Translations under genes and position numbers: made by a program
In this document: positions 1,276-56,680 of the stretch, piece by piece
Numbering within the stretch: position 1 is the first letter of the stretch
How the letters are laid out: each line of letters opens with the position of its first letter
From: Raja brachyura
Taxonomy: Eukaryota
DNA length: 64,000 bases
Direction of reading: 5' to 3'
Assembly (NCBI GenBank): GCA_963514005.1
Contig: OY740795.1
Coordinates: forward strand, 18,166,001-18,230,000
Notes under the pieces: generated by a model
Databases searched by the model: none
Told to the model about the DNA's origin: nothing
Seen by the model: only the letters and a program-made list of their open reading frames with translations

Positions 1276-3277
1276 GCGTTGAATAAACTTTGACTGTGCT
1301 GTTTTTTGAACTCGCGTAGCGTACTAAAAAATAATTCTATGCAATTAGACAAAGAGTGACCCCCTACAAATAAACAGCAACATAATGAGTATTGTATCTT
1401 AAATGCTGAGTGACGTGTGCAGTTACAGTGAACTGTAATACCTTTGAAACTAATACAATTTGATAAAGCGACCTTAAATAAACAGACTCCATACATTGAT
1501 GCTGTGAATCGCCTGAATACAGAGTAAATCTGTAAACCTACACAGAATCTGTAAACTTGCAAAGAAAAACCGTTAACCTGCTACATAACCTTTGTGCAGT
1601 TGTACGATATACAAATCGCACCCTTTTCACTAGCCTATTTTAAAAGCAATTCACGCATTTCAGGTGCTGTTTCATGAGTCACTAATTCTGCCTCCATGTG
1701 GTGAATTGTTCTATTTGCCAATCAGCAAAGGCAACTAATAAAATGAGCCAGGGATATCTCTGTCCAGTTATCAAAGGGAGGTTTATTTTCATTGATCAAA
1801 AATTGTAAAGAAGTTTGAACATTTTGGTCCTTTAGTGCTAAAATAAGTTTCTGGGATGCCTTAGTGCCTTTGTCTGGGGCTTGAGGTGAGGATTGCAGCA
1901 AAACCCTGGCTATGAAAGGTTGGGTTGGGGAGGGCTCAGTGTTGGTGGTCTGTTGGCCAATTTTAGTGCGGCAGGTTTTGTATGAATGGAAACTAAAAGC
2001 TATTAGTGTGTACGTGAGTGTGATGGTCCCCCAGGGGTAGTGAAAGGGGCTAGGTGGTGGGAACACAGCAGGTAGTGGCAGGAACAGGGGAGGGGGTCTT
2101 TCAGGTGATCCACAGCCTGTGTGGGATTGTGCAAACTGCTCCACCCCTGTATTGTGTTGTGTAATAAATGATTCAGGCCTGCTCAAGAGCAGTGTACCAA
2201 CTGGAGAAAGGCTAATTCCAATCTCTTCCCCCCTCCGAGCCCCTTCGTCACACCTCCCCTGCTCTTAACCATGTATCCAGCACTGGATTAGTGTTAACCC
2301 ATTCCATGATAGAACCTACATGCATGATTTGTGTAGATCCATTCTCGGTTTATTTTGTGCAGGAAGGAGCTGTAGATGCTGGTTTACAATGAAGATAGAT
2401 ACAAAATGCTGGAGTAACTCAGCGGGACAGGCAGCAACACTGGATACCCATTCCTTCTATCCAGAGATGATGCCTGTCCCGCCAAGTTACTCCAACATTT
2501 TGTGTCTATCTCGGGGTTTTTTTAACCTCCTGCATTAGAACTCTAATAATACAATACTTGCCAAAGTGCAGCTCGTTTCATACAGACATTATGGATAATG
2601 ATGGATGATCCACTGCTACTACCCCTTCTCCCTGTCCCTCGATCTCTGGTGGGTCCGAGGGCAAGGCTGACTTGAATAAAGCTGGCTGGTGCCTTTGCAA
2701 GGTCCAAAATTGATCTTGAGATGTACAGAGCAAGGGATATGGGGGGAAAAGCAGGAACGGGGTACTGATTTTAGATGATCAGCCCTGATCATATTGAATG
2801 GCGGTGCTGGCTCGAAGGGCTGAATGGCCTACTCCTGCATCTATTTTTCTATGTTTCTTTCTATGTTTCAATATTTCTAGAGCAGTAGTCCGAGGGTCTC
2901 CAATGTGGTGGGTGGGAGGTCAGGGCTGTTCTCGAGTTGGTGATGGGATGGTTCAGTTGCCTAATAACCACTGGGAAGTAAATGTTCTTGAATCTGAAGG
3001 TGTGCGTTTTTGCACTTTAGTACCTCTTGCCCAATGGGAGAGGGGCGAAGAGGGAGTGACCGTGGTGAGACTCATATTTGTTGTCCCCATGTCTCCTTTC
3101 CGTCTCGTATATATACTTTTGCACAATGGCCCCTGACACAAAATGTTATTGGGGTAAAGTGAGGATTACACACATCCACTCCAAATCAAGGGCTCTAGAA
3201 TACAGGAATAGGAAAATATATAATTTATTTTGATGCACCTTCTTGTTTGGTAAATGCTTGTACTTTCTCTTTTCTAG

Positions 3278-3343
3278 CTCTGTTTTGACCGGGACTGCTT
3301 GCTGTGGCCATGCCTCACCCTTACGGATCTGGGACCTTCAAAG
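3278..3343 (+). CDS. FBXW4: FBXW4 internal coding exon (66 nt)
   Basis: ttttctag|C...AG|gtaagg; translates SVLTGTACCGHASPLRIWDLQ, matching the FBXW4 motif TGTACCGHxSPLRIWDL. Confidence 0.93.
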
Positions 3344-5149
3344 GTAAGGGAACAAACCCCATGAATTTCACAGTTAGTGTCCTTGTGGTGTCACTGGAGC
3401 CCTCCTCTATTCAGAGGGTGGAAAGAACCTGCATTTGTTCAGCACCCTTCACAACCTTCAGTCATTCTAATGTGTCCTACAACCAGTCAGATACTTCTAA
3501 TGCACAATCGGCATGATGAGGAAACACAGTGGCCAGCTTAAGCACAAGGGGAAACTGCCGCAAACAGCAATGAGATGACAGTCAGGTTCCCTGTTACTAG
3601 GGTCCAGACCCTAAACGTCACCTATTCATGTTCTCCAGAGATGCTGCTTGGCCTGCTGAGTTACTCCAGCACCTTGTGTCCTTTAGTTGTAAACCAGCAT
3701 CTAATGTTCCTTATTTCTACACCTGTTATTAGAGTTGTTTGAGATACAAATATTGCTTGCAACTCGTGGGAGAACTCTGTTGCTGCTCTTTAGAAAGATC
3801 CATGGATCTTTAATGTTCACTTGGAGGTGAGAGGATCCCTTAGTTTAATATCTCATCTGAAAGAGCAACTCGGACAGTGCAGCATTCCTCCATTTTTGCC
3901 CGGTTTTCTGCCCAGAAACAGACCCTTAGAACTAACACATCGATGCCAAACATCCAGTACCCATCTACACCAAACCTCTTTGTCCAACACTTGGCCTTCG
4001 ATCCTTTTTGCCTTGATGATTCCAGTGCTCAACAAATGCTTCTTAACAGTTGTGAGAGTGCCTTCCACCACCACCCCTTTAGGCATTCCAAATTCCATAA
4101 CCTGTCTGGGTGAAAGAGAATATTTCTCGCCTTCTCTCTAAACCTCCTATCCTTACCTTAATCCTGTCCCTTTTGATTTCCAGCATCCCTGCTCTTTATG
4201 TCGTTCATAATTTGTATACATGGAACATGGACTATACGACGCAAGAATAGACTCTTTGGCCCACAGTATCTATAATCAGATTATCAACCCCCCACTAGCC
4301 TCCACAGAACACAAACCCAGCCTGACCAATGTCTCCTATAAAGAAAGATCCATCCTTATACTACAATCGTATACTTCCTATAGTGTTCCAGCCACAGTAT
4401 TCTGCACACAGTACTCCACCTGCACCCTAGCCAATATTTCATAAAATAGTAGCATATCTTCCTTTTCCTACAGTCTGTGCTCCAGTTAATGGAGGCGAGT
4501 ATTCTGTAATGGGAAGACTCATTTTGAGTATCTCCCACCTTATCTGTCGGTGCTGCCGCCTTCCGTGGTCCTTGGACTTGTACACCTAGATCCCTCTGTT
4601 CCTCAGTTCTCCCTCAGGATCTACCAGTCATTATGTGAAATATTATGAGTCCTCCCTTGCACTTATCCGGATTAAATTCCATCTGCTCTTCTTATCAACT
4701 GATCAATAGCATGTTGTCACCTAAGACAACCCTCCTCACTAACAACACCATTGATTTTCCATGCTGTCTACAAACTTGATAATCATACCTCCCAAATTTG
4801 CATCTAAATCATCAGTGTATGTCACAAACAGTAAACATCACAGCACCGATCCTATGCTACACCACTAGACGCAGGCTTTCAATCGCTCCTATTACCGTGG
4901 CAATTAAATTTGGCTACAACTTGCCAACTTGTCCTGAAAGGGGATTTGAACCATCAACTTTATGACTCGAAAACAAGAATGCAGCCCACTTAGGGCAGCA
5001 CAGTGGTTGAGTGGCCGCCTTACTGCGCCAGAGACCCGGTCTCGATCCTTACGACGGGTGCTGCCCGTACAGAGTTTGTACATTCTCCTTGTGACCATGT
5101 GGGTTTTTTCCGGGGGCTCCCATTGCCTCCAACACTTCCAAGATGTAGG

Positions 5150-6030
5150 TCAAGTCAAGTTTATTCATCACATACACATACGGGATGTGCAGTAAAATGA
5201 AAAGTGGCAGTGCTCGCGTACTTTGAGCAAAAAACAAACAAACAAACAAACTATAAACAAAATGGAACAGAATCATGAAATGTTCTTTTTCATATTAAAT
5301 ATTGTGGGCGGTATTGTGGTACAGTAATTTAGTAGAGTTAGTCCCTGGTGAGATAGGAGTTTACAGTCCGAATGGCCTCTGGGAAGAAACTCCTTCTCAT
5401 CCTCTCCGTTCTCACAGCACGGCAACGGAGGCGTTTGCCTGACCGTAAGAGCTGGAACAGTCCGTTGCAGGGGTGGAAGGGGTCTCCCATTATCTTATTG
5501 GCTCTGGAGTTGCACCTCCTGATATATAGTTCCTGCAGAGGGGCGAGAGAAGTTCCCATAGTGCATTCGGCCGAACGCACTACTCTCTGCAGAGCAATTC
5601 CCAAACCAGATTGTAATGTTTCCGGACAAGATGCTTACCACAGCCGCAGAGTAGAAGCACTGGAGGATCCTCGGAGACACTCTGAATTTCCTCGATTGAC
5701 TGAGGTGGTAAAGGCGCTGCCTTGCCTTACTCACGAGTGCTGCAGCGTGCGATGTCCTTGTCATATCCTCAGAGATGTGGACTCCCAGGTATTTAAAACA
5801 GCTCACCCTATCCACAGTATCCCCATTTATCCTCAATGGTGTGTACATCCTCAGATGTTGTGCCCTCCTAAAGTCCACGATCAGCTCCTGAGTTTTTTTG
5901 ATGTTCAAGAGGAGGCTGTTGTCCTGACACCAGAGTGCCAGATCAGCTACCTCCTCCCGGTAGGCCTTCTCATCGTTGTCTGAGATCAGGCCCACCACCA
6001 CGGTGTCATCAGCAAACTTGATTATCGAGT
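5150..6030 (-). mobile_element. Rex1/Babar LINE, 5'-truncated, inserted into a V-SINE
   Basis: RT C-terminal peptide (K)FADDTVVVGLISDNDEKAYREEV...FKYLGVHI...KARQRLY with a frameshift; 3' tail AATAAACTTGACTTG; SINE halves at ~4992-5150 and ~6030-6140. Confidence 0.85.
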
Positions 6031-9000
6031 TTTATCGAATTGGCCCTAGTGTGTAGGATAGTGCTAGTGTATGGGGTGATTGCTGGTCGGCGTGGACTAA
6101 GTGGTCTGAAAGGCCTGTTGCCACGGTGTTTCTCTAATGTGTAAAGTCACTTAAAAACCCTGAGGAAGAGACTAATTCAGCGTTTTGTATTAAGGAGATA
6201 GGGAAGAATGAGCAGAGAGGGTGTTGATTAACCTTGGACACCAATGCAATGAGGAAGAAGAGCATGCAGGGAGTTGTTATGAAGAGAGGGATTGGCGACC
6301 TCTAACCATTCCTGTGACAACCACCTCTATATCAGGTGTAGGTAGTAATATTATGAAGCTGTACACTTGAGGGGTCAGTAAACAATGCCAGTGATTTTAA
6401 ATGTGAAGGAAATTTATAGGCCTGTTTTCATTGCAGTGGAGTGATAGCTCAATGCAGCTGGGGAGCCTGAATCTGCCCGAGTAACAAAGCTGTATTAGTC
6501 AGGATTAGCAACACGGATAGACAGGGTTTGAGTTTATCTAGTGAAGAGGCAAGCACAGGCAATTGAAGGAGATTAGTCTTGTCTAGTAGTTTAATTTCTC
6601 TTTTAACTGGCAATCGCTCTTCATTTGACTGGCAGCTTGTGCAAGTGGTTTAGTGTCGAGCCTGCTGAGAAGGGCAAGAAGTAACAGATCTATTTGTAAT
6701 AGACAGGTGTCACGTTTAGGTGTTGAGTGAGGCTGTTCAAAGGCTCTGACAGATGATGTGGCCTTTTTCTCTTTTTTTGATTTGGCTTTCTGTGTTCTCC
6801 CACTGTCTATCCATAAATTGCTTGCATTTCCTTTTCTTTTCACACCCTTTATTGTAATACTTTTTGGTTCTAAGTCTTAATAATGTTTTTATTTTCTCAC
6901 GTCTAGCAATTTGTCTTTATATTTGTCACTCTTTTTCTGATTTGCTTTATATTTCGCTCTTTATTCATTCATTCTTTCTTTCATCATGGCTTTTCAATTA
7001 TTCAACCTGGTAAAATCATACAGCAGACCTCGCCTCGGCAGGGCACAAAAGAGTTGCCACGTTTCTGCACCGACAGTCACTAAATGTTCATCGAACATAG
7101 AACATTCTTCCTCTTGGATTCTCTGCTCCTATTTGTTTGCTGGCCTCACATTTAACTGTTAAATGAAAGATAGACACAAAATGCTGGAGTAACTCAGCAT
7201 CTCTGGAGAGAAGGAATGGGTGATGTTTCAGGTCGAGACCCCTCTTCAGATTCGATCTGCCATTTTTCACAACAGTCCGATCTGCCATAAAATGATATAT
7301 CCCTCATTTGTCAGGTATTTAGCTCCTGTCAGGGGTATTGCTCTGCAAAAATTGTTTAATGTGTTTTTTGCAATGCTGGGCTCACATTTAAAATTAAACA
7401 TTTTATTAGCTGAAAAATTACAATTGGGCATCCTGAAAGGGGTTCATAAGGAGCTGCAGAAATCGATATAAAGGCTGAATTGTAAGTCTTCTCTCTTTTA
7501 CTGTATTTAGCGGGTCAGTGAGAAACATTGAAATAGGTAGATAGGATAGGTTTAGAGGGATATGGGACAAATGCAGGCAGGTGGGACTAGTGTAGATGGG
7601 ACATGTTGGTTGGGCTGAGCAAGTTTGGCAAGGGCCTGTTTCCATGCTATATGACTGACTCTAAATGGGTGGGTGCTGTTTTTCTTTCAAAGAATCAACA
7701 ATAGTAGTTCAGTGAGTCCCTTGAATCTTTCCCATCCTTCACTACTATGATTAATACTTTGCCTCAATTTCCCACTTAATCCCCATATTCTTTGATTTCC
7801 CCAATTTGACTACCTGCCTCTCTGGATTGGAGAAAGCCAAACACTCACAGCACGCTGAGTTAATAAATATTTCCCCATCTCCGTCTTAAGTGGCTGACTA
7901 TCCTGAGACTATGCCTCTTGTTCTAAACTTGCCATCAAGAGAAATAGCCAGTCAAAATATACCCTTTTTATGCCTCTAAGAATTTGTTTACCTTTCATTA
8001 AAATCACTCATTCCTCTAATGTCAGGAAAGTACTTTAAGGAAACATTCAAGGCTGCGCTTAGTTCATTCATATGGTCCGACCATGGTGGCTTATCAATAA
8101 CAAAGCGAGTTTGAAGTGAGCAAGTCCGTAACCAGCTATTTCTGCATAGTAAATGTATGCACTGTGCCTACTGTGACATGCCAATATTATTGTCAACCTA
8201 TATATACCACCCTTGCATATTGGTTTATTGTCAGGTGTACCAAGGTACAGTGAAAAGCTTTTTTTTTGCTTGCTACCTAGTTTGTTGTGTGCTAACATTA
8301 TGGGTTACATCCCAGACTTGGGTATTGAAAGAAAATAATAATTATCAATCATTTTTATATGAAACTACAATTGATCTGGATAAATAATTGTGGACTAAAT
8401 AGGAATATCACGTGATTTTTGTATATGTATTAATACATCTCTGGGATTTAGTTCAAGTCTAAAATCAAATCGAGCGATTCAGGTGGTTTATATACGGAAG
8501 TGAATTCAAAAGTTTGTGGTCTAATCAAAATGTTTAGGTAGTTCATACACTGAATTATTACAGATACCTGAGGTATAAGTTGTTGCTGTGCTTAGTTTGG
8601 TCAGTGAAGATAATGGAAGGATCTGGAAGTTTGGATTTATCTTTTTTTTTCCCCTTGTGGGGGCCAGATGGGCTGCTGTGAAACAGATGTTTTGCTTTCA
8701 TCCTTTTATCTTCTGTGTGTGTAATCATGTATGTTTTGTCAAAGTACAAAGTAGCCCTGGTACAGGTTTACCTTTGTGAGCCATTGTGATGGCAAATGTC
8801 TTGTGTGTGATTGTGTGTGTTTTCTCCCACATATAGGGGCCACCTCGGCCTCCCCTTTTTTTTGTGTATCTTCCATTATCTGAAGCTTTTTCTCTGCATG
8901 TCGTGCTATTGAAGCTCGTGCCCGGGCTTGCGATGCAGGTTCCCACCATTCAAGACAGAACGTCAGGTGTTCGGGAAAGGGAGAGCCCTTTGAAGTAAAC

Positions 9001-48509: not shown

Positions 48510-48818
48510 CTCCCCAACACTGACAGTATCAGCGAGTCTGAGGATGAAGGTGTGTCCCAACGTGACCTGCGAGCTCTGATCTCTGGGGGCGAGCGTGGAG
48601 CTGTGGACCCCGACCCCAGCAGAGCCGCTGGCAAAAGCACATGGGTGTGTTCCCGCTCGTCCGAAAGCAAGCAGCTCAACCACAACCAGGCCATCACGGA
48701 CAAGCTGAAGACGTTGGAGACGGCGTACACGCACCAGGGTGACAGGTGGCGAGCGATGGGATACAGCAAAGCCATCAACACCCTGAAGAGCTATCACAAA
48801 CCAATCTCCACCTATCAG
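48510..48818 (+). CDS. POLL: POLL coding exon 3 (linker + start of 8-kDa domain)
   Basis: tccgcag|...CAG|gtaaaa; WVCSRSSESKQLNHNQAITDKLKTLETAYTHQGDRWRAMGYSKAINTLKSYHKPISTYQ. Confidence 0.94.
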
Positions 48819-48844
48819 GTAAAACATTCTCACCGCCTCCCTAA

Positions 48845-51755
48845 GGAATGAAGCTTAAATGTGTGAGCAGAGAGACAGAGGGGTGTAAAATTAGGGTAGA
48901 AGCAATAGGTAGCAAGGTGAAAAGTAAAAGTGGCAGGCAGGCAAATCCAGGGCAAAAATCAAAAAGGGCCACTTTTCAACATAATTGTATAAGGGGTAAG
49001 AGTGTTGTAAAAACAAGCCTGAAGACGTTATGTCTGAATGCAAGGAGCATTCGTAATAAGGTGGATGAGTTGAATGTGCAGATAGTTATTCATGAATATG
49101 ATGTAGTTGGGATCACGGAGACATGGCTCCAGGGTGACCAAGGCTGGGAGCTGAACATCCAGGGATATTCAATATTCAGGAGGGATAGACAGAAAGGAAA
49201 AGGAGGTGGGGTAGCGTTGCTGGTGAGAGAGGAGATTAACGCAATAGAATGGAAGGACATTAGCTTGGAGGATGTGGAATCGATAAGGGTAAAACTGCAA
49301 AAACCTAAGGGGCAGAAAACGCTAGTGGGAGTTGTGTACAGGCCACCTAACAGTAGTAGTGGAGTTGGGGATGGCATCAAACAAGAAATTAGAAATGCGT
49401 GCAACAAAGGTAAAACAGTTATAATGGGTGACTTCAATCTACATATAGGTTGGGTGAATCAAATTGGCAGGGGTGCCGAGGAAGAGGATTTCTTGGAATG
49501 TATGCGGGATAGTTTTCTAAACCAACATGTAGAGGAACCAACGAGAGAGCAGGCTATTCTAGACTGGGTATTGAGTAATGAGGAAAAGTTAGTTAACAGT
49601 CTTGTTGTGCGTGGCCCCTTGGGCAAGAGTGACCATAATGTGGTTGAGTTCTTCATTAGGATGGAGAGTGACATAATTAATTCAGAAACAAGGGTAGTGA
49701 ACTTAAAGAACGGTAATTTTAAGGGTATGAGACGTGAATTAGCCAAGATAGACTGGCAATTGATTCTTAAAGGGTTGATGGTGGATAGGCAATGGAAGGC
49801 ATTTAAAGACTGCATGTATGAACTAAAAAAATTCTTCATCCCAGTTTGGCAAAAGAATAAATCAGGGAAGGTAGTACATCCGTGGATAACAAGGGAAATC
49901 AGGGATAGTATCAAAACTAAAGATGAAGCATACAAATTAGCCAGAAAAAGCAGCCTACCAGAGGACTGGGCGAAATTCAGAGTCCAGCAGAAGAGGACAA
50001 GGATGAATTAGGAATGGGAAAATAGATTATAAAAGAAAACTGGCAGGTAACATAAAAACTGACTGCAAAAGTTTTTATTGATATGTGAAGAGAAAATGAT
50101 TAGTGAAAACAAATGTAGGTCCGTTGCAGTCAGAAACAGGTGAATTGATCATGGGGAACAAGGACATGGCAGACCAATTGAATAACTACTTTGGTTCTGT
50201 CTTCGCTAAGGAAGACATAAATAATCTGCCAGAAATAGCAGGGGACCAGGGGTCAAATGAGATGGAACTGAGTGAAATCCAGGTTAGCCGGGAAGTGGTG
50301 TTAGGTAAATTGAATGGTTTAAAGGCCGATAAATCCCCAGGGCCATATAGGCTGCATCCCAGAGTACTTAAGAAAGTAGCCACAGAAATAGTGGATGCAT
50401 TAGTGATAATTTTTCAAAACTCTTTAGATGCTGGAGCAGTTCCTGAGGATTGGAGGGTAGCTAATGTAACCCCACTTTTTAAAAAGGGAGGGAGAGAGGA
50501 AACGGGGAATTACAGGCCAGTTAGTCTAACATCGGTAGTGGGGAAACTGCTAGAGTCAGTTATTAAAGATGGAATAGCAGCACATTTGGAAAGTGGTGAA
50601 ATCATTGGACAAAGTCAGCATGGATTTATGAAAGGTAAATCATGTCTGACGAATCTTATAGAATTTTTCGAGGATGTAACTAGTAGAGTGGATAAGGGTG
50701 AACCAGTGGATGTGTTATATCTGGACTTTCAGAAGGCTTTCGACAAGGTCACACATAAGAGATTAGTATGCAAACTTAAAGCACACGGTATTGGGGGTTC
50801 AGTATTGATGTGGATAGAGAACTGGCTGGCAGACAGGAAGCAAAGAGTAGGAGTAAACGGGTCCTTTTCAGAATGGCAGGCAGTGACTAGTGGGGTGTAC
50901 CGCAAGGCTCAGCACTGGGAAATGCATGGCAGATGCAGTATAATGTGGATAAATGTGAGGTTATCCACTTTGGTGGCAAAAACAGGAAAGTAGACTTACT
51001 TGAATGGTGGCCGATTAGGAAAAGGGGAGATGCAACAAGACCTGGGTGTCATAGTACACCATTCATTAAAAGTAGGCATGCAGGTGCAGCAGGCAGTGAA
51101 GAAAGCGAATGGTATGTTAGCATTCATAGGAAAAGGATTTGAGTATAGGAGCAGGGAGGTTCTACTGCAGTTGTACAGGGTCTTGGTGAGACCACACCTG
51201 GAGTATTGCATACAGTTTTGGTCTCCTAATCTGAGGAAACACACTCTTGCCACAGAGGGATTACAGAGAAGGTTCACCAGACTGATTCCTGGGATGTCAG
51301 GACTTTCATATGAAGAAAGACTGGATAGACTAGGCATGTACTCACTAGAATTTAGAAGATTGAGGGGGGATCTTATAGAAACTTACAACATTCTTAAGGG
51401 GTTGGACAGGCTAGATGCAGGAAGATTGTTCCCGATGTTGGGGAAGTCCAGAACAAGGGGTCACGGTTTAAGGATAAGGGGGAAGTCTTTTAGGACCGAG
51501 ATGAGAAAATTGTTTTTCACACAGGGAGTGGTGAATCTCTGGAATTCTCCGCCACAGAAGGTAGTTGAGGCCAGTTCATTGGCTATATTTAAGAGGGAGT
51601 TTGATGTGGCCCTTGAGGCTAAGGAGATCGGGTGTATGGAGAAAAGGCAGGTACGGGATACTGAGTTGGATGATCAGCCATGATCATATTGAATGGCGGT
51701 GCAGGCTCGAAGGGCCGAATGGCCTACTCCTGCACCTATTTTCTATGTTTCTATG
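48845..51755 (+). mobile_element. CR1 LINE ORF2 (AP endonuclease + RT), with stops, frameshifts and an internal deletion of the RT active site
   Basis: CLNARSIRNK, GITETWL, GGGVA, YRPP, GDFN, SDHN (endonuclease); NYRPVSLTS, DFQKAFD (RT); jumps from GVPQG to the post-ADD region near 50915; (TTTCTATG)n tail. Confidence 0.93.
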
Positions 51756-52142
51756 TCACAGATAGACACAAAGAGCACAAAAAACTCAACCTGATGAAGG
51801 GTCTCGATCCGAAACGCCACGTATTCCTTTTCTCCAGAGATGCTGCCTGTCCCGCTGAGTTACTCCAGATCTTTGTATCAATCTTCGATTTAAACCAGCA
51901 TCTGCAGTTTCTTCCTACACATGTTAGTATCACAGCTTGGTTTGGGAACTGCTCTGCCCAAGGCCGCAAGGATGGAGCCCGGCCCATTACACAGACCACA
52001 CTTCACCATGGACTCAAGCAGCATCTGTGGAGGGAATGGACCGAGGGAAGTCACCAGAGGAGCTGCCTGACCCACTGAGTTACTCAAGCACTTTGTGTCT
52101 CAGTCACATTGACTGGAGCACCATTCCTAGTATGAGCTTTTT

Positions 52143-52603
52143 TTTCCCTTTATTAGAAGCAATGTACATTACACTGATATAAGCAAAAATAACATAATAC
52201 ATTTCCTGTATCACTTCTTATTTTATACTTTAAGAAGAAGAAGAATAGAGAGAGTTAGATAGGATAGTAAGTGCGTGAAAGAATGATCAGGAAGAACCCG
52301 TAGAGGCGTAAGACACAAGAAAGACTAAAAAAGAAAAACAAAGGAAAAGAAAGAGGAAAAAAAAAAAAAAAAATAGAAGACAGAAAATATGAGAAAGTAA
52401 AATAAGATAAGATAAAAGGGATGTACCTACTTCGTATCTTTACACACCCCTCACCAGGTCCTGATACCATTTATTTTCAGAGTTGTGTTGCACCCTATGC
52501 TTGTAATAAGTCGATAAATGGAGACCAAATCTTTTGGAAATGGTCTGATTTGCCTGCTGGGAGGAATCTCGTATCTTCTAGGTGTAACATTTCGGACATA
52601 TTT
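52143..52603 (-). mobile_element. 5'-truncated L1-clade LINE with 15-bp TSD
   Basis: TSD TAGTATGAGCTTTTT at 52128-52142 and 52604-52618; target TTTTT/AA; AATAAA and A-tail on minus; ORF2-like end EMLHLEDTRFLPAGKSDHFQKIWSPFIDLLQA*. Confidence 0.8.
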
Positions 52604-53340
52604 TAGTATGAGCTTTTTAACCAGGAATTATTTCATTATTTGAATTTCACTTCCCAAGTTGTTTTGATGGGAAACACACTTCCATCGAGAAATTAAAATC
52701 AAAAGACAAGATGCTGGAAATCTGAAAAAGAAAATAGAAGGTGCTGGAAAGGCTGCATGTGTGGAGCAGAACATAGAACAGTGCAGTACAAGAACAGGCC
52801 TTTCGGCCCACAATGTCTGTGCCGATCATGATGCCAAACCCAACACTTATCTACATGCACATAACCCATATCCCTCCATCCCATCTCATTTAGTTTTAGT
52901 TTAGAAATACAGTGTGGAAGCAGGCAGGCCCTGCTTTGGCCCACCGAGACTGCGCTGACCAGCAATTACCCGTACACTAGTTCTATCCTACACACTAGGG
53001 ACCATGCCTTTGGGATGTGGAAGGAAATGGGAGAACCCGGAGAAACTCCCAAGTGGTCACGGAGAACGTACAAACCATAGTTGGAATCGAACCCGGGTGA
53101 CTGGTGCTGCATGGCACTCTACAGCTATGCCACTGTGCCGCACTATACCTATTATCTACTTGCACGTAGCCCATGCCCCACCTTTCTCTGCATGACCATG
53201 TGCCTTTACAAAAGTCTTCTAAATGTCATGAATGAGAATCAATGAACAAAAAAAACAGAACGAGTCGATGTTTCAGATGTGGAATTCCTCAGCAGAAGTT
53301 CTATGGGCCTGAAATGTTCAGCCCTTCCTGTCTCCACAGT

Positions 53341-53368
53341 CTGAAGAAGGGTCTCGACCCGAAACGTC
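53341..53368 (+). ncRNA. Minimal type I hammerhead-ribozyme-like motif
   Basis: CUGAAGA + extra A + stem II GGGU(CUCG)ACCC + GAAA + palindromic ACGU + C; helix I support is weak (2 bp). Confidence 0.55.
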
Positions 53369-53931
53369 GCCTATCTCCTTCGCTCCTTAGATGCTGCTGC
53401 ACCCGCTGAGTTTCTCCAGCTTTTTGTGTAACCCTCGATTCTCCAGCATCTGCAGTTCCTTCTTTAACACTTTGTCTACTCCACTGCGATATCTCCTCAA
53501 GGTATGCCTACTTTGAAGAAGTTCTCCTCCTCCCTACGAAGACAGTTTCACAACCTCCTCTCTAACTCCTCCTCCCTCTGTGATACCCCCTTCCCTCCAA
53601 CTCTACGACCACATCCTCACCCAGACTCGATACCACAGCCACATCTGCTTCCTCGGGGCCTGCCTGCGCCTCCACCTCATACCTCATGGATTCCAGCTCC
53701 AATTCCCTGCCTCCCAGTTCGGACCCCAGCCAGACTATCGGTACCGACTGGCCATCCGCCGCCACACTGTACAATTCTCCAACCGGGCATTAAGATCCAC
53801 CCTGGTTGCAATGCGCCGGCACCAGCAGGACCTCGCATTGGCTCTCCCGAATCTTCGGGCCTCACTCACCCAGACCTGCAACGGACCCCAACTACACTAC
53901 ATCCTCCAGAAGATCCACCGCAAAAAGCAGT

Positions 53932-53959
53932 CTGAAGAAGGGCCTCGACCCGAAACGTC
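53932..53959 (+). ncRNA. Second minimal hammerhead-like motif
   Basis: CUGAAGAAGGGCCUCGACCCGAAACGUC; one substitution in stem II relative to the first. Confidence 0.5.
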
Positions 53960-54183
53960 GCCTATCTCCTTCGCTCCTTAGATGCTGCTGCACCCGCTGA
54001 GTTTCTCCAGCTTTTTGTGTAACCCTGTCTCCACAGATGCTGCCTGACCGGATAAGAATTTCTGACATTGTATGTTTTATCTTGCGTTTCCAACTTCTGC
54101 ATGTTTGTTATGATTTGAAAGTCTGCCCCTCTCAGGGTTTTGTGCATTTCAGAGTCATCATCGCTCCCGTTCACTCTCCGCAG

Positions 54184-54357
54184 GAAGCCTGTGAGATCCC
54201 CGGGATCGGCAAGAGGCTGGCCGAGAAGATTTGGGAGATCCTGCAAACTGGCCATCTGCGCAAGTTAGATCACCTGGGCGACAGTGTCTCTGCGCTGGGG
54301 ACCTTTGCCAACATCTGGGGAGCTGGTGTGAAGACAGCCCAGATGTGGTACCAGCAG
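54184..54357 (+). CDS. POLL: POLL coding exon 4
   Basis: ccgcag|...CAG|gtgagg; [30 protein letters not shown]...[18 protein letters not shown]. Confidence 0.96.
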
Positions 54358-55094: not shown

Positions 55095-55504
55095 GTAAGT
55101 GCTTCTGTATGATTGTGGGTGTGGAACCATCGCTACTCCGGTTTACTCCCACACCCCAAAGGCTTGCGGATTTGTAGTTTAATTGGCCCTCAGCAAATTG
55201 ATCCTAGTGTGTGGGGACTGGATGTGAAAGTGGGATGACATAGAACTAGTGTGAACGGGTGATCGATAGTCGGCATGGACTCAGTGGGCCGAACAGCCTG
55301 TTTCCATGTTGTATCTATAAATCAATCCAACAATCAAAAATGTGTGTAGGAAGGAACTGCAGATGCTGGTTTAAACCGAAGATAAACACAAAAAGCTGGT
55401 GTAACTCAGCGGGGACAGGCAGTATCTTGGAGAGAAGTAATGGGTGACATTTCGATCGAGACCCTTCTTCAGTTTTTAGGTTGCAGTTTGTCCGGCGGGT
55501 CCAC

Positions 55505-56680
55505 CTATATTCGATTCCTCTTGTTATAAAGGCCAACATGCCATTCGCTTTGTTCACTGCCTGCTGTACCTGCATGCTTACTTTCATAGACTGATGTACA
55601 AGAACCCACAGATCCCGTTGTACTTCCCCTTTCCCCAACCTGACGCCATTTAGATAGTAATCTGCCTTCCTGTTTTTGCTACAAACGTGGATAACCTCAC
55701 ATTTATCTGCATTAAACTTCATCTGCCATGTATCTGCCCACTCCCCCAACCTGTCCAAGTCCCCTGCATTCTCATAGCATCCTCCTCACAGTTCACACTG
55801 TCACCCAGCTTTGTGTCATCTTTGCTAATGTTACTTTGAATCCAAATCATTGATGTATATTGTAAATAGCTGTGGTCCCAGCACAGAGCCTTGCGGTACC
55901 CCACTAGTCACTGCCTCCTTTCTGAAAGGGACCCGTTAATCCCTACTCCTTGTTTCCTATCTGCCAACCACTTCTCTATCCTTGCCAGCACTCTACCCCC
56001 AATACCATGTGCCCTAATTGTGCCCACTAATCTCCTATGTGGGACCTTATCAAATGCTTTCTGAAAGTCCAGGTACACTACATCCACTGGCTCTCCTTTG
56101 TCCATTTTCGTAGTTACATCCATGCTGACTCGGAACAATCCTGTTACTGTTATCCAAATGTGCGGCTATCTCATCTTTTATAATTGACTCCAGTATCTTC
56201 CCCACCACCGATGTCAAGCTAACTGGTCTATAATTCCCCGTTTTCTCTCTCCTGCCTTTTTTTAAAAGTGGAATAACATTAGCTACCCTCCAATCCACAG
56301 GAACTGATCCCGAGTCTATAGAACATTGGAAAATTATTACCAATGCATCCACAATTTCTAGAGTCACTTCCTTAAGTACCCTGGGATGCAGACCATCAGG
56401 TCCTGGGGATTTATCAGCCTTCAGTCCCATCAGTCTATCCAACACCATTTCCTGCCTAATGTGGATTTCCTTCAGTTCCTCTGTCACCCCAGATCCTCTG
56501 GCCACTACTATATCAGGAAGATTGTTTGTGTCCTCCTTAGTGAAGACAGATCCAAAGTACCTGTTCAACTCATCTGCCATTTCCTTGTTCCCCATAATAA
56601 ATTCACCTTTTTCAGTCTTCAAGGGTCCAACTTTGGCCTTAACTATTTGTTTCCTCTTCACATACCTAAAGAAGCTTTTC
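55505..56680 (-). mobile_element. CR1 LINE RT fragment, antisense to POLL
   Basis: KSPGPDGLHPRVLKE...NYRPVSLTSVVGK...DFQKAFDKVPH; frameshifted. Confidence 0.9.

Follow-up and report, generated by a model that had tools for sequence, protein, structure and literature searches.

An insertion with two hammerhead cores in a POLL intron

The window (the whole 64-kb stretch of DNA that was analysed) carries on its + strand a gene which, from its protein motifs, we take to be POLL, the gene for DNA polymerase lambda. One of its introns (48819..54183, + strand, 5,365 nt, GT..AG) separates an exon ending at 48818 from the next one, which begins at 54184 on the same strand, and holds a cassette with two hammerhead cores in sense orientation, as the initial annotation had proposed. 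The pyrimidine tract is kept, since the insertion stops 147 nt before the POLL acceptor. In presumed-RNA contigs from other organisms (X16, X17, X19; three of six such sets), the exon downstream of this intron is spliced to the exon that follows it; contigs do not reveal RNA ends, and these sets have no bearing on cleavage or on splicing across the insertion. The cassette had also been placed inside an older copy of its own repeat family, and local alignments agree: the host repeat is old and diverged, a terminal-repeat copy from a related Penelope family (53289..54100, + strand), and is split at about its position +55 into parts at 53289-53339 and 54037-54100.

Other repeats are found in and around the same intron. 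On the - strand, a decayed hammerhead core (53267-53292) faces the host repeat head-to-head. The intron also has a further, older sense copy at 51791-51914 (+ strand), in which the cleavage triplet has been lost. Two inverted LINE-like fragments (50067-51149 and 55504-56679), about 79% complementary to each other, flank the POLL exons at 54184 and ~54966 and might pair in the pre-mRNA.

Positions in the element are numbered from the first C of the hammerhead core (+1, window position 53341), with the predicted cut between +28 and +29; all features of the cassette lie on the + strand. Two direct repeats of 99 nt (53337-53435 and 53928-54026; 98 bp in the initial annotation) are spaced 591 nt apart and, as annotated, differ at a single site, T53352 in copy 1 against C53943 in copy 2, the latter within helix II. 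Both repeats open with CAGT, 4 nt ahead of the hammerhead core, and the cores themselves occupy 53341..53368 (minimal type I, predicted cut after 53368) and 53932..53959 (with the private T>C at 53943, predicted cut after 53959). The insertion is made of two pieces that begin at the same element position, -3. The left piece (53337..53921) comprises the terminal repeat, the leader and the start of the coding region and breaks off at parent position +580; the right piece (53928..54026) ends at +95, the main 3' end of the family. They meet at a single junction through a 6-nt A-rich linker, AAAAAG (53922..53927), which is absent from the parent at that position and is a putative template-jump scar.

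Aligned to a full-length parent unit in L031, the cassette reads as -3 to +580 with four substitutions and one extra base, then AAAAAG, then -3 to +95, an identity of 99.1%. The truncated coding start (53504..53935) opens with the ATG at 53504, meets the frame shift at ~53573 and gives a reading frame of 143 aa that stops at 53933-35, inside core 2. The motif H..FL..C...LIP.G, which had been ascribed to this reading frame, is present within the cassette but out of frame with the ATG because of the one extra base at ~53573. A Pfam scan of the cassette's coding piece in the other frame gave no match.

The cassette is bounded by the 13-bp duplication already noted in the initial annotation, at 53327..53339 on the left (its last 3 nt common to the first bases of the element) and at 54024..54036 on the right (its first 3 nt common to the last bases of the element). 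Contigs from 8 of 21 sequencing runs were compared. In all three other, related organisms compared at this site (X3, X4, X10) single contigs bridge an empty site that has one copy of the 13-mer, and both filled junctions are present in two runs (X1, X2) of organism A, which is one sample (S1) and possibly the source of the assembly. The empty sites in three organisms and the two junctions in organism A therefore establish a true, lineage-limited insertion. The insertion is young and Penelope-derived, as had been claimed.

The parent Penelope-like element and its abundance

The middle of the cassette has 2,374 candidate places in the genome. Forty were scored: all 39 others are 98-100% identical to the cassette up to ~53921, and four lie in tandem with a period of 3,965 nt. 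At L031-L033 (G000:C18:46.36-46.38 Mb) there is an array of at least four near-identical full-length units of 3,965 nt, and in the units read the coding region occupies two overlapping frames. The longer one, a 977-aa frame in L031, weakly matched RVT_1 (E 4.4e-4) and then GIY-YIG (E 1.3e-3), both below curated cut-offs, and the parent also encodes a CX4CxxC linker, with Cys motifs as described in the accessible sections of PMC8557442. Judged by its sequence, the cassette is a fragment of a Penelope-like element (PLE) with a reverse transcriptase (RT) plus a GIY-YIG domain at the C terminus. The parent may be of the Neptune type, and the linker fits Nematis equally well; a CX2-5CxxC linker between RT and endonuclease (EN) is typical of Neptune and Nematis alike in the same sections of PMC8557442.

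Compared with EN+ Neptune and Nematis PLEs, as these are covered in the accessible sections of PMC8557442, the family shows the same partial-tandem and inverted terminal repeats, and its parent resembles them in the order of RT, CX2-5CxxC linker and GIY-YIG-like domain. The two 3' ends of the family lie ~35 nt apart, and the known tail is 30-40 bp. These two 3'-end clusters, the inverted copies and the 3,965-nt tandem are the signs of a pseudo-LTR with a tail. The cassette differs from such elements in keeping only the first 580 nt and in having pieces that share one fixed start base, not random truncation points. Among the skate genome papers listed, none was seen to describe this particular Penelope family.

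The family is abundant. Across 2.7 Gb there are 50,608 exact copies of the 28-nt hammerhead core and, with up to one mismatch allowed, 67,262 of a 42-nt piece taken from the young repeat, a density of about one per 40-50 kb; eight near-matches to the core fall within the window. It is thus nothing unusual for an intron to hold a sense-oriented core. The cassette junction, searched for at up to one mismatch, gave one genomic match in 2.7 Gb, and both of its matches among the 236 stored loci are the POLL site; occurring once, it indicates that the 591-nt unit has not spread. Past +580, 27 of 29 other loci run on into the coding region, L013 continues for 13 nt before an internal deletion, and L024 returns to -3 after ~+580 by way of a linker other than AAAAAG.

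These counts bear on the possibility that the cassette descends from a non-autonomous retrozyme family that has amplified a unit of 591 nt. Such an origin would suit the two tandem hammerheads, a unit near the size range given in the accessible parts of the literature and the long target duplication, but it is hard to reconcile with a junction matched once in the genome and with a nearest look-alike (L024) that has a different linker. We regard it as very improbable and, given the single junction match, largely refuted in this assembly.

Family copies often start near one fixed base and mostly end at two sites

To survey the ends of the family, 115 young copies were sampled from contig C1, within its first 4.7 Mb. 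The 3' ends fell at +90..+97 in 71 copies and at +126..+132 in 27. The 5' ends fell at -4..+1 in 54 copies, further upstream in 40, at +2..+26 in 19 and at +27..+29 in 2. Among the 54 copies of the start class in this sample, 17 are in inverted form, and a crude survey of their target duplications gave lengths of 12-17 bp in 7 and none of at least 6 bp in 33. Genome-wide, no excess of starts was seen at the cut site, with 143 at +29 against 162 at +33. The number at +25 (59) is lowered by the exclusion of A and by the presence of two CpGs, which leaves +33 as the fair control. A second apparent cluster of 5' ends at ~-160..-168 (21/115), at a poly-C tract of the 3' untranslated region, is probably an artefact of ungapped extension.

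The base preceding CAGT was G in 796 and A in 447 cases genome-wide. In the 115-copy sample G was found in 10 of 23 (p 0.20), where the first 43 copies had looked suggestive, and 12 of 30 G-preceded loci examined were inversions, which confound a cap-G signal. These counts give a weak hint that -3 is a capped transcript start with a cap-derived G.

In the available passages of PMC11167929 on the anole element PAc (Poseidon), the tail is set by two adjacent internal RT start sites, insertion draws mainly on uncut RNA as its substrate and the hammerhead cleaves only with the element's protein. The present family resembles PAc, as described there, in that its two 3' ends match PAc's internal RT starts and tail, and equally in that no ends pile up at the cut site. 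It differs in layout: the hammerhead of PAc contains the beginning of the ORF, and the RT initiates within that ORF, whereas here the 3' ends precede the ATG (+164). Template jumps onto broken RNA ends are not described for PAc in those passages.

Recurrent A-linked junctions and probable template jumping

Searching for AAAG directly before the element start gave 54 places, of which 30 were fetched; 19 of these have element sequence joined directly upstream. These 19 junctions (two of which are one locus) break between +64 and +3662. Template jumping by the element's enzyme would account for the scattered breaks, the fixed restart and the short, A-rich linkers, whose As may stem either from an RNA tail or from addition by the enzyme. 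Head-to-tail double cores no more than 30 nt apart number 718 genome-wide; in the 100 listed, inspected by eye, about 5-8 end at the cut site and most at +30 to +45. Same-strand core pairs within 1 kb amounted to seven pairs in 5 of 85 sampled loci, which suggests that they number thousands genome-wide. In the literature on template jumping by Penelope elements, the relevant passage available to us concerns inserts in rotifers.

The cassette is a lineage-specific, two-piece, head-to-tail 5' insertion, probably produced by one template-jump event on uncut element RNA, with the hammerhead cores as passengers. In this sequence of events, the endonuclease would have nicked the old terminal-repeat copy in the POLL intron, and reverse transcription would have begun inside the RNA at ~+95 and proceeded to the RNA 5' end at -3. 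The RT would next have moved onto the 3' end of a short, broken-off fragment of element RNA, from the same molecule or another, and this short RNA would have been copied to -3 and joined to the target by a 3-nt microhomology. The two cores would have been carried along as passengers that, by prediction, adopt the active dimer fold very rarely. The recurrent A-linked junctions, the near-identical break in L024, the 718 double cores and the 5' ends at -4..+1 all support a template jump. On this reading the cassette is young and unremarkable, a by-product of a Penelope-like element that is very active.

The same arrangement could have arisen from a longer partial-tandem insertion that later lost everything between +580 and its last terminal repeat. 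Internally deleted copies do exist in the family (L041), and partial tandems are the normal form of PLEs in the accessible sections of PMC8557442. However, the right break of such a deletion would fall exactly on the 5'-end hotspot of the family (-3), the joint bears an A-rich linker and no microhomology, and the same type of junction recurs at many break points. We consider a deletion remnant quite unlikely and retain the template jump.

Several further loci carry related structures. Two-core cassettes with units of ~230 nt are present at L168, L197 and L207, and L179 holds a five-core stutter. L024 (G000:C2:53940362-53943845) is an independent two-core cassette with a 584-nt unit; given that it breaks at nearly the same place as the POLL cassette, +580 may be a favoured RNA end. 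In the sequencing contigs, a joint from 53815 to 53343 reached a depth of 2621 in run X4, compared with 95 for single copy, and a joint from 54007 to 53343 reached ~560 in runs X3 and X2, compared with ~10. Such high-depth joints to the repeat start are possibly amplified junction families; the joint 54007->53343 is absent among the 236 stored loci.

Hammerhead cores and prospects of cleavage

The initial annotation had recognised two minimal type I hammerhead cores with an extra A, and the sequence matches the motif as presented in the accessible parts of PMC4209133. All conserved bases are kept, including the G10.1-C11.1 pair, with the extra A after A9 and a palindromic ACGU in place of a helix III with loop 3. 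The published motifs share the conserved core, the extra base between A9 and G10.1, the G10.1-C11.1 pair, the palindromic 15.2/16.2 positions and the absence of loop 3, and they likewise are mostly scattered singles. The differences lie in arrangement, stems and number. The pairs reported in those parts of PMC4209133 are 100-700 bp apart on opposite strands, whereas the POLL pair is on the same strand; helix I has 2 bp in the cassette compared with 4-5 bp typically, helix II 3-4 bp compared with 7-8 bp in Schistosoma, and the 50,608 exact cores found here compare with ~2,000-9,000.

Helix II has 4 bp in copy 1 and 3 bp in copy 2 owing to the T>C at 53943. Helix I has 2 bp in all four registers, as the initial annotation had cautioned, and falls short of the 4-5 bp stem of the descriptor. 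An Rfam search of the cassette (E<=10) returned no match to a hammerhead family; for a core that lacks a helix III loop such a miss is expected, and it is no evidence against the motif. In fold computations the pairs of the dimer are legal and nested, but the constrained double-hammerhead fold of 53300-54060 lies 29.6 kcal/mol above the free ensemble, in an energy model that ignores tertiary contacts, Mg2+ and help from protein. Folded as a circle, the 591-nt unit (55% GC) is 43% paired, with a z of +0.8 against 40 shuffles. The 2-bp helix I and the penalty of ~30 kcal/mol thus make cutting of the POLL pre-mRNA or formation of circular RNA unlikely under this model, which likewise disfavours release of a 591-nt circle from the POLL pre-mRNA. 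With the active dimer fold predicted to be very rare, the POLL pre-mRNA would probably be spliced normally and no stable circle would form.

We nevertheless weighed an active double hammerhead, in which the two cores would pair through ACGU, perhaps with the element's protein, and free an RNA of 591 nt, whose ends would be ligated to form a circle; the substrate would be either the POLL pre-mRNA or a transcript begun at the start site in the cassette itself. Every conserved base is indeed kept in both cores and the required pairs can form without crossing. In the accessible parts of PMC4209133, minimal PLE hammerheads show low activity in vitro even as dimers, and D. virilis PLEs likewise have a 2-bp helix I. 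Elsewhere in the excerpts available, eight of nine Xenopus dimers remained uncut in vitro while axolotl dimers cleaved efficiently, and the anole hammerhead cuts only with the element's protein (passages of PMC11167929). At L188 (G000:C14:63771407-63774449), head-to-tail units of 36-37 nt end exactly at +28, the cut site, and are followed by an A-rich linker. On sequence grounds, this locus may record a hammerhead 5' cleavage product that was used as a template, a hint that the family motif cuts rarely in vivo. Against activity at POLL stand the 2-bp helix I, the lack of a loop 1-loop 2 contact and the weakened helix II of copy 2, together with the modelled energy penalty and a circle that is predicted to be no more structured than shuffled sequences. 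The family as a whole also has no cut-site signal, and the cassette has no daughter copies. Overall, we judge an active double hammerhead to be improbable, and the cores are better regarded as passengers of the template jump.

A different arrangement is seen at L007 (~825-880), where a copy from an older subfamily has an inverted junction; as a result, the stretch immediately upstream of the core is perfectly complementary to the post-cut sequence. Copies of this kind, with a long helix I, may be better ribozymes than the POLL cassette.

Relation to retrozymes

The initial annotation had called the cassette retrozyme-like, a description that we do not uphold: the junction is unique, the unit shows no excess fold (z +0.8) and the repeats start before the ribozyme. 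Several features do recall retrozymes. Type I hammerheads stand in direct tandem 591 nt apart, and the coding start between them is truncated and frame-shifted. As characterised in the accessible portions of PMC7229834 and bioRxiv 10.64898/2026.07.22.740005, non-LTR retrozymes similarly have tandem type I hammerheads, are PLE-derived and have a long target duplication. Their hammerheads are canonical, whereas those of the cassette are minimal; their RNAs are typically 170-400 nt compared with a unit of 591 nt; their GC content is typically below 45-50% compared with 55%; and their circles are highly self-paired, in contrast to the 43% pairing and single copy of the cassette. The Rfam search, the fold and the 55% GC gave no sign of a canonical hammerhead or a self-paired, GC-poor monomer, and with its junction found once in 2.7 Gb the cassette is not a many-copy unit. 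Having two cores but only ~1.2 units, the cassette comes close to the operational rule in the portion of the preprint available (two units, complete motifs), and the supplementary tables of bioRxiv 10.64898/2026.07.22.740005 on one cartilaginous fish may list such cassettes. Related literature is cited from excerpts of PMC2377424 and PMC3846280.

In itself the POLL locus is minor, one species-limited insertion out of ~67,000 young copies. Neither spread, by the genome-wide junction count, nor conservation, by the three organisms with an empty site, is apparent. The value of the cassette lies in providing a dated record of PLE copying that can be tested by polymorphism, with the fixed start at -3, the internal RT starts and the A-linked jumps all preserved, and it bears on how partial tandems form, on the purpose of the hammerhead and on the origin of retrozymes from PLEs. 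If cutting did occur, the locus would offer a ready test, set up by nature, of a weak ribozyme within an intron of a DNA-repair gene, and the empty-site relatives would serve as controls.

A broader and speculative proposal, to which we attach a low probability, is that such cassettes represent the birth stage of animal retrozymes. Template jumps of the PLE enzyme onto broken 5' RNAs would yield dimers and trimers of the hammerhead, arranged head-to-tail and 40-600 nt in size, in which the start site of the element and its RT starts are retained; the element's protein would aid their cutting. Some would then undergo cleavage and circularisation and would spread, and sense-strand copies in introns, such as the POLL cassette, would trim the pre-mRNA of their host gene in those tissues that have an active element. 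Among the loci examined, the most retrozyme-like is L189/L190 (G000:C15:23341499-23344833), where three cores follow one another with a 292-nt period and an identical linker occurs twice, an arrangement that we read as repeated copying of one short RNA.
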